A program made the translations under genes and the position numbers. A stretch of 31,653 bases of DNA. It comes from Nitrososphaeraceae archaeon (lineage in GTDB: Archaea > Thermoproteota > Nitrososphaeria > Nitrososphaerales > Nitrososphaeraceae). This document shows positions 25,182 to 31,636 of the stretch, in pieces. The DNA is taken from contig DATDNG010000189.1 in the NCBI GenBank assembly GCA_036518375.1, positions 1 through 31,653 of the forward strand, read 5' to 3'. The notes beneath the pieces are model-generated. The model had not been told where the DNA came from. It made no database searches and worked only from the letters and a program-made list of their open reading frames with translations. The stretch's first letter is position 1. Each line of letters opens with the position of its first letter.

Positions 25182-26726
25182 TTGGCTTTGCAGAGAGAAA
25201 TTTCTAACGCCCTTTCCTATGCCACTAGCATGGGTTATCAAATTCATCCTGACGCTTTTTCAATGCTGAAGGGTCTTGATATCGACATTTTAAAGATTAT
25301 ACAGGACATTATCAAAAGGAAAATCAAACAAAAGGAAAATTCCCTTATTGTAGTAGAGGATATCAAGATCCACATTAATCCAGAAAACAAATTTGATGTT
25401 GATGTAATTAACATCAACGGCGCCGGGACTTCTGCTGTCACTTCTTTTACTGAACAGAATTTTCATAAAGTAATTTTAGATCCAACTCCAAACGTTAACA
25501 CTGGAGAAGGTATTGAAGGTTATACTGCACTTTTCCGTAGTAGGTTTGAAAAGTCACTTCGCATATTAGCATTACGCCCAGAGAGTAAGCGAATTACAAA
25601 AATTGCTTCTATAAAACAGAGCGTAAATAATGCAAAGAAAGGTAAATCGCATTATGTTGAAGGGAATTCGATTACGAATTCTTCTATAATAGCTGGTTTG
25701 CTAATGTACAAGCATTCAAGGAAGAATGGATTAGAGATGATAATTGATGATCACAGCGGAACATTAAGCGCGCTCGCCAATACTGAAGAATTAAAGAAAC
25801 AAGCTTCTATGATTCCTCTTGACCAAATGGTCATGTTAGAAGTTGAGCGTAATATGAAGGGAATTCAAGGTTTCATTATAAAGAATCTGGTTTCACCAGA
25901 TATTCCTGATCACCTCCCAAATAGATCAAAACATGAATCTTATGCAGTTTTAATTTCTGATCTTCATGTTGGCAGCAAATATTTCATGGAAGCTGAATTT
26001 ATTAGATTTTTAAATTGGCTTTCATCAACCGATGATGAAATTGTAAATAAGATCAGATTTATGTGTATTGGAGGGGATTTAATTGATGGAACAGGCATAT
26101 TTCCTAATCAAGATAAGGAATTACTTGAAATCAATACTACCAGGCAGATGATGCATGTTATGGATTTGCTTGCTAAAATTCCTATGCATATCAAGGTCTT
26201 TGTAATTCCTGGTAACCATGACCTAGGAAGAAGGGCTCTGCCTCAACCATCGCTACCAAAAAAGGATTTCGATAAATTATACTCTTTTGGAAATTTTACA
26301 ATGCTTGGAAACCCTAGCTTAGTAGAATTAGATGGTGTAAAAGTATTGATGTATCATGGACAGAGTTTAGATGATATTATTGCCACGGCTCCAGGTCTAA
26401 GTTATTCAAAGCCAGCAGAGGCAATGAAAGTATTGCTCAAAGCCCGACATTTGTCGCCAATATATGGACAACGTACACCTTTAGCACCAGAGAAAGAAGA
26501 TATGATGGTAATTACTGAGATCCCAGATATATTCCATTCAGGACACGTTCATATCATAGATGTTGAAAATTATCGCGGAACATTAGTGGTTAATTCAGGT
26601 GCATGGCAGGAACAAACTAAATTTCAACAGACTATGGGTATTGTACCAACTCCCGGAATAGCAATTCTAATTAACTTGGCTACCCTTCAGCCATTTCAGC
26701 TGGATTTCAATCAATTATCAATATAA
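25182..26726 (+). CDS. DNA polymerase D small (proofreading) subunit DP1
   Basis: Mre11-like phosphoesterase motifs ISDLHVGS, GGDLIDG, PGNHD, YHG and SGHVH. Also NSGAWQEQTKFQ and an OB-fold region. Confidence 0.95.
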   Translation: MALQREISNALSYATSMGYQIHPDAFSMLKGLDIDILKIIQDIIKRKIKQKENSLIVVEDIKIHINPENKFDVDVININGAGTSAVTSFTEQNFHKVILDPTPNVNTGEGIEGYTALFRSRFEKSLRILALRPESKRITKIASIKQSVNNAKKGKSHYVEGNSITNSSIIAGLLMYKHSRKNGLEMIIDDHSGTLSALANTEELKKQASMIPLDQMVMLEVERNMKGIQGFIIKNLVSPDIPDHLPNRSKHESYAVLISDLHVGSKYFMEAEFIRFLNWLSSTDDEIVNKIRFMCIGGDLIDGTGIFPNQDKELLEINTTRQMMHVMDLLAKIPMHIKVFVIPGNHDLGRRALPQPSLPKKDFDKLYSFGNFTMLGNPSLVELDGVKVLMYHGQSLDDIIATAPGLSYSKPAEAMKVLLKARHLSPIYGQRTPLAPEKEDMMVITEIPDIFHSGHVHIIDVENYRGTLVVNSGAWQEQTKFQQTMGIVPTPGIAILINLATLQPFQLDFNQLSI

Positions 26727-27928
26727 TGCAAAAGGATTGGATCATCTTTTAATGCTTCTTTAATAGTTAAAGTTGGAATTGTAATCTTGATTCTCTGTGA
26801 TCTACCATATCGCCCCTGACTCACTACATTGCTTGTTATCAGACCGAGTTGATCAAGTTCACTTATTATTTGTGTTATACGACGTTGTGTAAGAGGTTCT
26901 TGCTCACTAAGTGAACATAACGACGAATAAATTTCGTACACCTCACCAGTATTTCCATTCTTTGATTTAGTTATCGCCAGTATCACTAGCTTAGTATGGG
27001 CAGTAGAATTTTTTAGAACTTCATAATTTGTATCCTTTTCAATTTTTTCTTGAGCTAATCTAATGTGTTTTTCTTCGACTTTAGAAACTCTTTCCCTCTC
27101 AGCAATTTCGGCGGCGACTCTTAATAAATCAATTGCTCTCCTTGCATCACCATTTTCCTTCCCAGCCATTGCCGCACATAGATTTATTGCCGCATCAGAT
27201 ACTACCTCGTCGTTAAATGCAAGCTTAGCTCTATCTGATAGGATCTTCTGTAATTGTTCTATTGTATATGGATTAAACACCATTTCTTCTTCGCTTAAGC
27301 TACTTCGAACACGAGGATCAAGTTTATCTTTAAACGTAAGGCTGTTAGATATCCCAATTAGGCTGATAAAGCCTCCTTCAGAGATTCGCTCATTTGCCCT
27401 CGTAAAATTATATAAGATATCATCACCATTTTTATCTACTAGCGAATCAATTTCATCCATTACTAAAATAACATAAAACTTTTTCTTTTGAATGAAATCA
27501 AGAATTCTATCTGTAGCTTCGCCCATAGACAGCCCAGTAAAATGTACGTGTAATTTTTTTTCTCCTTTATTAATACCCATATCCTTAGCAATTTCATAAA
27601 GGACTTTGTAAGCGGTATTTGCAGTTTTTGTATTGACAAATGGTACTATTACTTCTATCCCAAGTTCCCGGGCCTTTTTGTGTAAGCGTTCAATTACGTT
27701 TTTAGCCACTGCTGTTTTTCCAGTACCGGGCTTACCAAATAATAAAAGATTAGACGGTCGTGCTTTCCTTAAAACTACAGATAATGCCTGTGCAATTGTT
27801 TTAGTCTCCTCATCTCTAAATGGAAGCTTTTCAGGTACATAGTCTATTGTCAATGTCCGGCGATTTTTGACCAGTGCTTTTCCAACAGCAGCTTTTTCAA
27901 AAATATTGTCAAGCAAATCATCACTCAA
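26711..27928 (-). CDS. cdc6: Orc1/Cdc6 replication initiator
   Basis: YVPEKLPFRDEE, Walker A GKPGTGKT, Walker B MDEID, RVRSSL, GDARRAIDLLR and C-terminal wHTH (RRITQIISEL, GRYG). Confidence 0.97.
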   Translation of the reverse strand: MSDDLLDNIFEKAAVGKALVKNRRTLTIDYVPEKLPFRDEETKTIAQALSVVLRKARPSNLLLFGKPGTGKTAVAKNVIERLHKKARELGIEVIVPFVNTKTANTAYKVLYEIAKDMGINKGEKKLHVHFTGLSMGEATDRILDFIQKKKFYVILVMDEIDSLVDKNGDDILYNFTRANERISEGGFISLIGISNSLTFKDKLDPRVRSSLSEEEMVFNPYTIEQLQKILSDRAKLAFNDEVVSDAAINLCAAMAGKENGDARRAIDLLRVAAEIAERERVSKVEEKHIRLAQEKIEKDTNYEVLKNSTAHTKLVILAITKSKNGNTGEVYEIYSSLCSLSEQEPLTQRRITQIISELDQLGLITSNVVSQGRYGRSQRIKITIPTLTIKEALKDDPILLHYIDN

Positions 27929-27961
27929 CTCAAATCACTCTTAATAAGTGGATCACTCCAC

Positions 27962-27975
27962 ACCCCTATCTTTCC
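27962..27975 (-). promoter_or_regulatory. Mini-ORB-like site in the cdc6 promoter
   Basis: Minus strand GGAAAGATAGGGGT matches 12 of 14 positions of the ORB GGAAATGTAGGGGT, 34 nt upstream of the cdc6 TTG. Confidence 0.55.
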
Positions 27976-28099
27976 TATCCAGCATAATATACTTTTATGA
28001 TAACAAGATGTTAACAATTTGTTTTTAAACATTAAAATCAATAAATATTGATTATCATATAAAATTTTTAAATATTAAATATTCGGTTACGAGTAGCAA

Positions 28100-28120
28100 T
28101 TCCATACGAAACTGTGGGGT
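28100..28120 (+). promoter_or_regulatory. ORB-like element (inverted relative to the other ORBs)
   Basis: TTCCATACGAAACTGTGGGGT: TCCA-n3-GAAA core plus G-string. Confidence 0.7.
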
Positions 28121-28198
28121 GAGCGTTCCGATTAATATATTCGGGTATTAACAATTTGTTAACAAATTTGATGGTAATATAGAAAAGAGGAAGAAATA

Positions 28199-28220
28199 GG
28201 ACCCCTACATTTCCACTGGA
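28199..28220 (-). promoter_or_regulatory. Origin recognition box (ORB)
   Basis: Minus strand TCCAGTGGAAATGTAGGGGTCC matches the archaeal ORB consensus. Identical copy 60 bp downstream. Confidence 0.9.
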
Positions 28221-28258
28221 CTGTTAACTAATCGTTAACATTGTTAACAAGCGATATT

Positions 28259-28280
28259 GGACCCCTACATTTCCACTGGA
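28259..28280 (-). promoter_or_regulatory. Origin recognition box (ORB)
   Basis: Exact 22-bp repeat of 28199-28220. Confidence 0.9.
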
Positions 28281-28469
28281 ATAAAAATGCCTTTATTGAA
28301 ATATAGGTGGTATGTTAACAAGGCAAAGTTGTTAATGCAATATGAACTCTCTCATTTGATGTTAACAAAAACTAAGTAATTTATTATCAATAAAGTTAGT
28401 AGCTGTGTTAAGTGTTAATATGTTAACACTAATTGCACGAAGCAGAAAGATGCTCGAAATTGAGCGTAG

Positions 28470-28640
28470 GTGAAAAAAGATAAAGATAGAACTTGAAGAT
28501 GTTGAAGGTGGCAAGTATAACCTTTCATTAGAAGGTAATATGTCAAAAGATAAAATAATAGAGATCTTTGAATTAATGGAACTGCTTGAACTAAGAGGAC
28601 AAAAAACTAATAATATTAATAATACCGATAGGGTCTACAG
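28470..28640 (+). pseudogene. N-terminal part of an origin-adjacent gene interrupted by IS6
   Basis: KKIKIELEDVEGGKYNLSLEGNMSKDKIIEIFELMELLELRGQKTNN..TDRVYR. The GTG at 28470 is out of frame by one A in an A6 run. Confidence 0.7.
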
Positions 28641-29336
28641 GGCTCTAAAGTTAAGAGATCACTTCCCTGTTACAATGATCTACAAAAAGATTGAACTAAT
28701 TTTGTATATGCTTTAGTTTACATTTCTTTTTTCTGCATGGAAAATAGTAGTCATCAAAGCACTCAGTTCTATCTTTGATATATTGTATAGTTCTTTCTAT
28801 TATGATGCTTTTCTCATGAGAGGAATTGATATGATGATGATCTAATTTCAAGAATTTGCAAGCTTGTGGATACCAGGTTCCACCATCTGTTGGAACTGGA
28901 TGTTTGTCATATCCTTCTGAAAGATTGGATAGGAAAGGTTCTACCACAAACATATTTCGTTCTTTTGATATTATACTAAATAATCCAAGAATTTCCTTAT
29001 TTGTTGGTTGGTTCTATAACAATCCAAAGCCAAATGAATTCTGAACCTACTATCTTGATTACGATCTCATCAATCAACTATGAATTCAGAGATCTTTTTT
29101 TGGAAAATAACTTCTCAGGTTGGTATTTTTGTATCCAATCTCTTATTGCACTATGACTTCTTTTAATAAATCTGGATATTGCTTTGGATGTGCTTCTTAA
29201 TGACAGGCCAAGGGAGTACAGATATAGAAAATATGCTATAATATAATCAGGTTCTGTTCTCTTTCTTATTTGGTATAATATCATAAACGGTAAATAAGGA
29301 GGAAATCTATAGCTTTTTGCTTAACTTTACAGAACC
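28641..29336 (-). mobile_element. IS6-family insertion sequence remnant (696 bp)
   Basis: Terminal inverted repeats GGCTCT--AAAGTTAAG (28641-28655) and CTTAACTTTACAGAACC (29320-29336). Flanked by the 8-bp direct repeat GTCTACAG (28633-28640 and 29337-29344). Confidence 0.92.
28651..29284 (-). pseudogene. IS6-family DDE transposase, multiply frameshifted
   Basis: Fragments LYSLGLSLR..AIRDWIQKY, SEFIVD, GSEFIWLWIVIEP, KERNMFVVE, TDGGTWYPQAC, IERTIQYIKDRTECFDD and HIQN*FNLFVDH (probable TGG>TAG). Confidence 0.9.
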
Positions 29337-29344
29337 GTCTACAG

Positions 29345-29610
29345 GAATGGTAATGACACCAACTCAACAATAGGAACCGCAGAAGTAGAACTTAAGCAAA
29401 ATAATAAAACCTTGGTATCTGGTTCCAAGATATGGAAATTGATTGAGGATAAAGTCTCATCTGTCAACTTCTTCAGATGTTCAAGAGATATTTGAAGAGA
29501 ATTATGACGAACCTATCAACTAAGCATAATTTCTATTATCTGTCTAGGTATTCTGAAAGAGGTAAACTTATTAGGAGCAAAAAAGGGAAGAAATAGGTAT
29601 ACACAACAAC
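29345..29610 (+). pseudogene. C-terminal winged-helix-like part of the IS6-interrupted gene
   Basis: Continues in frame across the target duplication (VYR|NGNDTN..GSKIWKLIEDK). Then TSSDVQEIFEENYDEPI, LSIIS and YLSRYSERGKLIRSKKGKK*VY, with frameshifts near 29465, 29519 and 29536 and a TAG at 29594. Confidence 0.7.
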
Positions 29611-30332
29611 TAGGCAGCAGTCTGTGATTGGAAGTCAGAAGAATACGAGTCAACAGCAATCCAAGGGTCCTTGTAATTTGTTTGCTGATGCGTATTCAGC
29701 TTTAGAAGACCTGTATCCGTGATAGTATATTTAAAGGGTTTGCTACCACTTTCTCTGCTTACAAGGTTTGTTTGATAAAGTCTTTTCATAAGACGTGATG
29801 TATGTTCCCTTGTTCTCCCGATAGCGTATTGTATTTCTCTTGAAGTCCTGGGTCTCTCGATCAGTAATTTTAAGATATGATCTGTAGTGACATTTTGCAC
29901 AGTTGTTGGATTATTTTTGTCAACTATTGTCTTTGATGAGTCCAGAGTGGGCGTTGTCGTGGCCCTATTAGTATAGGGTGTCGAGAATTGTTCTGGCTCA
30001 CGTGATTGATGCTGTGATGTTGAGCTTAGACTATCTGGATTTATATCACGATTAGAAAAACTAAAGGGAACCGGCGATGGATGTTGACGTAGCATCCGTA
30101 ATTCCATAGTGTCTATCCTCGTAACTGATTCCGTAACTGTCTTCTCAAAGCCCTTCAACCTACTCGAATACTCGGAAATAATTGCTTCGATGATATTCTC
30201 GTTAGTCTGCGAAATGGATGTTTTATGATGCAACATTAATTTACTATAAATCATTATGCTGAGAGCACCAATAGCAAAAGATCCTATAATGGACGTCACT
30301 AAGTTCCAATCATAAATCCCGATATTCATCAT
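29610..30332 (-). CDS. Membrane-anchored protein with C-terminal winged helix-turn-helix
   Basis: TM helix LVTSIIGSFAIGALSIMIY, coiled coil, Ser/Thr/Pro linker and wHTH ILKLLIERPRTSREIQYAIGRTREHTSRLMKRLY..PFKYTIT. Start moved to the ATG at 30332. Confidence 0.8.
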   Translation of the reverse strand: MMNIGIYDWNLVTSIIGSFAIGALSIMIYSKLMLHHKTSISQTNENIIEAIISEYSSRLKGFEKTVTESVTRIDTMELRMLRQHPSPVPFSFSNRDINPDSLSSTSQHQSREPEQFSTPYTNRATTTPTLDSSKTIVDKNNPTTVQNVTTDHILKLLIERPRTSREIQYAIGRTREHTSRLMKRLYQTNLVSRESGSKPFKYTITDTGLLKLNTHQQTNYKDPWIAVDSYSSDFQSQTAA

Positions 30333-30385
30333 TATGTCACAATGTAGAGAGATACCGTGATTTATTCTTATAGAGAAAGATAACT

Positions 30386-30757
30386 TTACACCTTGCACAT
30401 TTTCTTTAGAATACTGTTAACAGTAGATGTCACGTTGTATGTAATCTTATTATGAGAAATATCACTATTCACATTATCCAACATCACGACTAATTGATCA
30501 CACATTGTTCCAAGTAGAGAAAGTGTTTGTTGGTCGATAGCTCCAATGGATTTCAATAACAATATACTATAAAGGACGCCGATGATTTTGTTGCGACACT
30601 GCTTTAACTGTCTGTGATACGCACCACGGCTTATATTTTCAGGAACAGTTTGATGAGACAATCGATTATAAATAATATCTATTTGCCTCTCGGTAAATAA
30701 AGAATTTGCAATAATTTCTTTATAAATAATATTAAAGTATGGTTCATACTTATTCAT
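30386..30757 (-). CDS. Conserved-looking hypothetical protein with HTH-like segment
   Basis: SLFTERQI..NISRGAYHRQLKQCR. The upstream track extension overlaps the GGGPS start, so the ATG at 30757 is preferred. Confidence 0.6.
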   Translation of the reverse strand: MNKYEPYFNIIYKEIIANSLFTERQIDIIYNRLSHQTVPENISRGAYHRQLKQCRNKIIGVLYSILLLKSIGAIDQQTLSLLGTMCDQLVVMLDNVNSDISHNKITYNVTSTVNSILKKMCKV

Positions 30758-30895
30758 GAAGCTATACTGATTTGTATACCAACGCATAAAAATATTATGA
30801 TATAGACGGTATAATTGTTTTGTAGAAACATAGTTAAAGAGCATAGAATCATTGATAGCAATGATATACACGGCTATTGACATCTTGGGAGCGAC

Positions 30896-31636
30896 ATGTG
30901 GAATAATGTAGAGGAGTATATTCATAAGGAGATTAAAAAACATGGGACATTATGCTTTCCTCTTATAGATTCTGAAAACTCTTCTGAGGCAGCCTACATC
31001 GCCAAGAAGGCTGAGAAAATAGGAGCTTCTGCAATTTTGGTAGGAGGATCTTCTGCGGTTGATCAACTTGAGCTCATGGAGGTAGTCTCAAGTATTAAGT
31101 CACAAGTCAGCATTCCCGTGATATTGTTTCCTGGCAATGTTACTGGAGTGTCTCCTAAAGCAGACGCTATTTTGTTTAGCTCTTTGCTTAATTCAGAAAA
31201 TCCTTACTTTATTACTGAAGCTCAAGCATTGGGAGCTCTTGCTGTAAAGAAACACAAGATCGAACCATTACCTACTGGTTATTTAATTATAGGTGAAGGT
31301 ACTACCGCATGGTTTATAGGTCGTGCTCGCGGAATCCCCTTCAATAAATCAGGAATTGCCATTATGTATTCTCTAGCGGCACAGTATCTTGGCATGAGAT
31401 TTCTGTATCTTGAGGCGGGCTCAGGTGCCATTCAGAATATCTCGCCACAAATGGTTGCGTCTGTAAGAAAATACTATGACGGAATCCTTATTATAGGTGG
31501 CGGAATTCGAAAACCGGAAATTGCAAAAGAAATAGCTAAAGCAGGTGCAGACATCATTGTAATTGGTACAATTATTGAGAAAGATAAGAACTGGGAAAAT
31601 ATATTCTCTTCAATTATCAACTCTATAAGGAGATGA
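30896..31636 (+). CDS. Geranylgeranylglyceryl phosphate (GGGP) synthase
   Basis: FPLIDSE, ILVGGS, ILFPG, SLLNS.NPYFI, YLEAGSGA and IIGGGIR motifs. Confidence 0.93.
   Translation: MWNNVEEYIHKEIKKHGTLCFPLIDSENSSEAAYIAKKAEKIGASAILVGGSSAVDQLELMEVVSSIKSQVSIPVILFPGNVTGVSPKADAILFSSLLNSENPYFITEAQALGALAVKKHKIEPLPTGYLIIGEGTTAWFIGRARGIPFNKSGIAIMYSLAAQYLGMRFLYLEAGSGAIQNISPQMVASVRKYYDGILIIGGGIRKPEIAKEIAKAGADIIVIGTIIEKDKNWENIFSSIINSIRR

Follow-up and report, generated by a model that had tools for sequence, protein, structure and literature searches.

To our knowledge, replication control in ammonia-oxidising archaea is almost unstudied. The only origin mapped among these organisms is the single one of Nitrosopumilus maritimus (PMC4010727). 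Two proteins from Sulfolobus are the closest conceptual precedents for the gene family considered here, and neither is homologous to it. In the case of oriC3, a winged-helix gene, that of the Cdt1-like protein WhiP, lies beside the origin, and by rule replicators are paired with their initiators (PMC4010727). UBP, a small non-initiator protein, binds the non-ORB motif ucm of Sulfolobus origins and modulates origin function (Dhanaraju et al. 2025, PMC12141716). The analogy with UBP is a functional one only: it is a saddle-shaped beta-hairpin binder and not a winged-helix (wHTH) protein, it is not encoded at the origin, and it binds hundreds of genomic sites (PMC12141716).

In this study, we have analysed a stretch of 31,653 nt from a soil ammonia-oxidising Nitrososphaeraceae archaeon, hereafter the window, in which a winged-helix gene likewise stands beside the origin (Table 1). 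Unlike the case of WhiP, the origin of the window has classic ORB repeats and its own cdc6, and the linkage of the gene to the origin is dispensable, the gene having been relocated in several genera. The locus itself is an ordinary pseudogene. We read it, with a probability of roughly 0.7, as a decayed copy, on the origin side, of a DNA-binding gene with two domains that is conserved among ammonia-oxidising archaea and specific to their clade.

Table 1. Features of the origin and its flanks in the window (positions in nt).
Feature	Position	Strand	Content or basis
polD small subunit gene	25182-26726	+	
orc1/cdc6 initiator gene, on the far side of the origin from the pseudogene and divergent to it	26711-27928	-	Pfam Cdc6_lid, Cdc6_C, AAA
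Origin region, 528-bp AT-rich gap	27929-28456		ORB repeats, 8 GTTAAC, 18 TGTTAA half-sites
ORB repeats in the origin region	28199-28220, 28259-28280		
Last three TGTTAA-type sites before the pseudogene	28406-28428		30-50 nt 5' of the native start
Pseudogene, 5' part: native TTG start, frameshift, N-terminal beta-hairpin/helix domain, Asn-rich linker	28457-28640	+	translation, DNA alignment to the intact G020 orthologue
Target-site duplication GTCTACAG, left copy	28633-28640		
Degenerate IS6-family element, 696 bp	28641-29336	-	
Target-site duplication GTCTACAG, right copy	29337-29344		
Pseudogene, 3' part: linker and winged-helix domain	29345-29596	+	
Intact membrane-anchored wHTH gene (TM-wHTH), second of the conserved origin-flanking trio	29610-30398	-	weak TrmB/ArsR matches
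Intact 185-aa gene (orf185), third member of the trio	30386-30943	-	no family assignment

Elements of the IS6 family measure about 0.7-0.9 kb, generate an 8-bp target-site duplication and carry short terminal inverted repeats. A preliminary description of the window had proposed that such an element, with its duplication, splits a gene, and the ends of the element, its transposase match and independent contigs all bear this out. Imperfect inverted ends (GGCTCTAAAGTTAAG and GGTTCTGTAAAGTTAAG), which begin with GG and whose 13-nt arms are 92% complementary, enclose the insert, and the 8-bp direct repeat GTCTACAG at both flanks is its target-site duplication. The transposase lies on the minus strand, from 29284 down to 28699, and is interrupted once by a stop codon in frame (29078-29080) and once by a frameshift, near 29000. 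When read through, it matches the NCBIfam model transpos_IS6 (NF033587) over 166 residues with an E-value of 6.4e-21 and 75 bits, which falls short of the curated cut-off of 125 bits because the gene is broken and diverged; a Pfam search of the transposase gave no match. The element is thus like members of the IS6 (IS26) family, including the archaeal ISC774 type, in its length of about 700 bp, its single DDE-type transposase, its 8-bp duplication and its inverted ends starting with GG, and it is unlike them in its broken transposase and low score. Seventeen further fragments of the same IS family, mostly diverged, are found elsewhere in the assembly.

In public sequencing data, Logan contigs from runs of three studies (X1, X3 and X5), one of which may be the source of the assembly, span the left junction along with the origin and the region of the 5' frameshift, and the right junction is spanned in these runs too; the insertion is therefore not an assembly chimera. 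The public-run contigs also display strain-level indels at positions 28765, 29049, 29483 and 29637 of the window (a 24-nt deletion, an additional C, a 2-nt deletion and a 12-nt insertion), which is what drifting dead DNA would show in the IS and the pseudogene. A chimeric ORF of 58 aa (28540-28716), running from an internal ATG of the pseudogene into the end of the IS, is probably meaningless.

Excision of the element with one copy of GTCTACAG restores the frame KKIKIELED...NNTDRVY-R-NGNDT..., as had been stated, although the rejoined frame has no start codon: a -1 shift in a G+A6 run (28469-28476), overlooked at that stage, displaces the native TTG start (28457) from the frame, to which the GTG at 28470 does not belong either. 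The later frameshifts and the TAG described beforehand are real, the deletions in the 3' part numbering three rather than two (5 nt lost after 29466, and a single nt after each of 29515 and 29535); apart from the 5' shift and one of these deletions, the earlier account of the gene was accurate. They are followed by a TGG to TAG stop at 29594-29596, and a C-terminal tail of about 40 aa is missing. Relative to G020, the closest intact orthologue, which has this tail and to whose DNA all these lesions were called by alignment, the gene carries four frameshifts, the IS and one stop.

The preliminary description also held that the gene had been knocked out by the IS6 element and that this makes the strain, in which the gene would be dispensable or replaced, a natural knockout. 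We found no support for either proposal in this genome. The origin copy is multiply broken in all four species of the genus, with the IS in the lineage of the window alone; in the other three (G001, G002 and G003), the frameshifts and stops are mostly different. The poly-A frameshift may be common to the copies of the window and G001, a weak indication of sharing, as slippage in such a run can recur. These multiply broken copies across the genus suggest that the IS probably arrived late, when the gene was already dead.

A true knockout would require that the family be dispensable in the genus, the IS or an earlier lesion having removed a non-essential origin factor, and that any further copy in the genome be mis-binned or non-functional. 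Several genera do tolerate loss of the gene from the origin slot, and only broken copies were found in G001 and G002 (fragmented MAGs, 96% complete), from which the family gene may be truly lost. We nevertheless consider this explanation unlikely, as an intact second copy of 170 aa, which retains all the invariant residues of the family alignment (A1), is present on contig C526 of the window's own genome (G000), and a further one on a 13-kb contig of G003 (C57). These two copies are sisters in the family tree (support 98/91), the branch of the second copy measuring 0.29 against 1.41 for the pseudogene, in a tree whose short protein and long branches leave the branching within Nitrososphaeraceae too weak to tell one duplication, several relocations and lateral replacement apart. 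The small size of contig C526 (2571 bp) and the contamination of the assembly (2.2%) would favour mis-binning; against this, C526-type contigs occur alongside the window sequence in all four public runs concerned (X1, X2, X3 and X5) at similar depth (12.4 vs 15.2, 7.3 vs 11.1, 5.4 vs 8.9 and 4.1 vs 5.2, the window given second). From this co-occurrence and depth, there is a good probability that the copy belongs to the organism of the window. The family is, moreover, near-universal and single-copy (67 of 76 high-quality genomes), and each empty-slot genome examined has the gene elsewhere.

With an intact copy, accompanied by part of its own promoter block, elsewhere in the genome in at least two of the four species, the strain is not useful as a natural knockout. 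On the decayed-copy reading, the origin copy would have come under relaxed selection once a gene copy had moved or been duplicated, at or before the ancestor of the genus. The IS6 element would then have landed in the already dead gene, and it has itself decayed since, as its stop and frameshift attest.

The intact proteins, of roughly 130-190 aa, constitute a near single-copy family of Nitrososphaerales. Used as a query, the read-through C-terminal piece found a match in 35 of 41 relatives, and a profile search did so in 92 of the 121 genomes covered in the order, nearly always with a single match in each. The family numbers more than 1000 protein clusters, none of which bears a name other than hypothetical or predicted transcriptional regulator; every Pfam and NCBIfam model stays below threshold on it, and our literature search found no paper on the family or the TGTTAA array, nor any study of GTTAAC in Thaumarchaeota or of origin proteins with a winged helix in ammonia-oxidising archaea.

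The AlphaFold (AF2) model of the G020 orthologue, built on 25 sequences, agrees with the C-terminal wHTH domain claimed in the preliminary description: three helices (H66-77, H85-96 and H102-114) and a beta-hairpin wing (E118-123 and E126-131) are predicted at a pLDDT of about 95. They are preceded by a beta-hairpin and helix (residues 6-43, pLDDT 65-80) and a disordered linker, and followed by a disordered C-terminal tail. Foldseek matches of the model are wHTH regulators of the ArsR/AntR, Fur, RosR, BlaI/MecI and PadR types, while a structural search with the N-terminal domain returned uncharacterised proteins only. In Nitrososphaeraceae members, the disordered tail ends in a conserved terminal motif (DLHQ, DLRP, DVN or NLNN in alignment A1; e.g., L028:8680-8697) that is absent from Nitrosopumilus-type orthologues and may be a short protein-interaction motif.

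On the strength of this model, we are confident of a winged helix in the C-terminal domain; its closest fold relatives are repressors of the BlaI/CopY type, a term used here for the fold and not for family membership. The domain, of 70 residues, has the same H1-H2-H3-wing topology as BlaI/MecI/CopY (Penicillinase_R, PF03965), with weak but consistent sequence matches along the recognition helix and wing. The same sub-threshold CopY/Penicillinase_R match over this domain recurs in four homologues, the best scores (16.7 bits against a Pfam cut-off of 22.6, and 20.5 against an NCBIfam cut-off of 122) lying well below the thresholds of PF03965 and TIGR02698, and the family profile matches CopR (2k4b) with an E-value of 0.16. 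Unlike BlaI/CopY, the family protein has an N-terminal beta-hairpin/helix domain and linker without counterpart there, and it is missing their C-terminal dimerisation or sensor domain. Nor do our searches support an archaeal initiator of the Orc1/Cdc6 winged-helix or Cdt1/WhiP kinds: the protein, of the size given above, has no ATPase and, unlike WhiP, no Cdc6_C or CDT1 match in Pfam at E-values up to 1, and no Cdc6 or Cdt1 winged helix is found among 50 PDB and 30 AFDB Foldseek matches.

The surroundings of the gene are conserved well beyond the genus. The order polD small subunit, cdc6, origin, family gene, TM-wHTH, orf185 and GGGP synthase (GGGPS, the next feature to the right of orf185 in the window) recurs from Nitrososphaeraceae to Nitrosopumilus-type genomes, and in the complete genomes G017, G036 and G032, the family gene closes the record, which then wraps round to cdc6. 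TM-wHTH is present in 45 and orf185, for which there are zero Pfam or NCBIfam matches, in 44 of 48 orthologous loci. Origin linkage, as the preliminary description had supposed, is widespread: by hand pairing of the profile matches of both genes, the family gene lies within 3.1 kb of cdc6, on the same contig, in 82 of the 89 genomes holding both. Fifty-nine of these are divergent with a gap of 435-800 bp, and four are divergent with a gap of 1.0-1.9 kb. Nine, all from family f9, have a gap of about 3 kb, some 2.7-3.0 kb being inserted between cdc6 and the gene at loci L055, L056 and L038. In the remaining ten (eight in f12, plus G118 and G076), the gene is in tandem upstream of cdc6, at a distance of 240-330 bp in f12 and one f15 genome (loci L071, L072 and L075). 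The ancestral layout is that of a gene divergent from cdc6 across the origin; at the locus of the window, transcription away from the origin and TGTTAA(C) sites directly upstream are both found, as described earlier.

Clear exceptions to origin linkage are confined to the taxonomic family of the window. Between the origin and TM-wHTH, G011, G015, G016 and G019 have an empty slot and carry the gene elsewhere, the neighbours of the relocated copies being housekeeping genes only (DnaJ-domain, eIF1A, HemD and TatC), with no replication context around them. The origin-side position has thus been lost by pseudogenisation, deletion or relocation while most genomes keep the gene, and hence any function of the protein acts in trans. 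The origin linkage of the family is ancestral but dispensable.

In the preliminary description, the intact orthologue was regarded as the best candidate reader of the GTTAAC repeats of the origin. The 8 copies of GTTAAC in the 528-bp gap compare with 0.21 per kb genome-wide, and the 18 copies of TGTTAA, against a background of 0.93 per kb, form the densest cluster of the 3.48-Mb assembly; the repeat unit is the half-site TGTTAA. The TGTTAA array is conserved in families f1, f13, f4 and f9, with 7-29 copies per origin, and TGTGAA(C) replaces it in at least nine others (f10, f19, f6, f2, f5, f11, f17, f14 and f7), as seen across the gap of the window and the orthologous gaps of loci L047-L086. 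The latter observations bear on the idea that the GTTAAC clusters are methylation sites, analogous to GATC/SeqA at bacterial oriC, and not sites for a dedicated binder. GTTAAC is palindromic and a restriction-type site, and a D12-class N6-adenine DNA methyltransferase is encoded at a distance of 2.6 kb from the relocated copy of G003 (L027:5817-6707, G003:C57), but the enriched unit is not palindromic and outnumbers GTTAAC, its substitute in the nine other families is TGTGAA(C) rather than another palindrome, and our literature search found no methylome data, so that we regard methylation as very improbable.

The array persists where the adjacent gene is dead (8, 8, 8 and 6 GTTAAC in the four species of genus g1) or absent (6 in G019 and 5 in G011), which fits a trans-acting reader but identifies none. 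This full density at origins without a working neighbour is also what may be expected if the family protein were an ordinary local autoregulator or cdc6 regulator, the array being read by TM-wHTH, orf185, an AbrB/MazE-type protein or Orc1/Cdc6, an alternative to which we give a chance not far short of even; a family copy acting in trans would also explain the persistence. Where TGTTAA gives way to TGTGAA, each of the three flanking proteins differs as well (in the wing of the family protein, G[KR]EW vs GxxW; in orf185, GAYYR vs GSFLRT; in TM-wHTH, outside the recognition helix), which leaves room for another reader. Covariation between motif type and residues was considered as a discriminator and discarded: it has no power, as all three proteins change at one deep split.

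A second array widens the choice further. The second-densest TGTTAA cluster of the genome comprises six TGTTAACA palindromes in 150 bp (G000:C530:9399-9903; L087:2400-2903), does not flank a family copy, and is bordered by tRNA-Ala(CGC) on one side and by a 52-aa gene of AbrB/MazE type (PF04014, above cut-off) on the other. The same arrangement, with palindromes that align, is found in a different genus (G015:C4; L089:1210-1653), and an AbrB-type ORF occurs inside the origin flank of Nitrosopumilus-type loci. The contigs C530 and G015:C4 both end soon after the array, and this may mark the edge of a region that is variable or mobile. In G015, the neighbour of the AbrB gene looked by eye like an integrase N-terminus, an assignment not retained as Pfam gave nothing. 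The AbrB/MazE gene at the C530 array is a fourth candidate reader and weakens the wHTH family as the "best" one. Against a reader other than the family stand its recognition helix LSxISTYLxR, invariant order-wide as expected for a conserved target, and the relocated copies, whose travelling promoter retains TGTTAA-type sites (7 in 1.6 kb vs about 1.5 expected).

This promoter block, of about 75 bp with TTAACAAAA and TGTTAAGT at its ends, aligns between origin-linked and relocated copies, and that it travels with the gene would fit autoregulation. Its TTAA cores could equally be TATA/BRE elements instead of operators. The live protein would work in trans as a dimeric sequence-specific binder and, most likely, as a repressor of its own promoter, acting at TGTTAA-type sites proximal to that promoter. 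We propose only tentatively that the protein may, in addition, bind along the TGTTAA array of the origin and of the cdc6 promoter, and with no more confidence that the TGT(T/G)AA array in the origins of ammonia-oxidising archaea is read in trans by the family, which would serve as a clade-specific accessory origin factor or cdc6 regulator. If this were true, the pseudogene, empty-slot and relocated states would be natural experiments, in which the origin linkage is ancestral and not required.

All together, a near-universal, single-copy and clade-specific winged-helix gene, kept next to cdc6 and the origin in roughly nine genomes out of ten, obviously suggests itself as a candidate for the control of the origin or of the cell cycle in these archaea. 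The window contributes three observations: the origin-side position can be lost while most genomes keep the gene, TGTTAA is the clear half-site of the origin repeat and TGTGAA a variant of it that is lineage-wide, and the same palindrome array beside an AbrB/MazE gene and tRNA-Ala widens the list of candidate readers. The value of the present locus is to show that the origin linkage of this uncharacterised family is dispensable.
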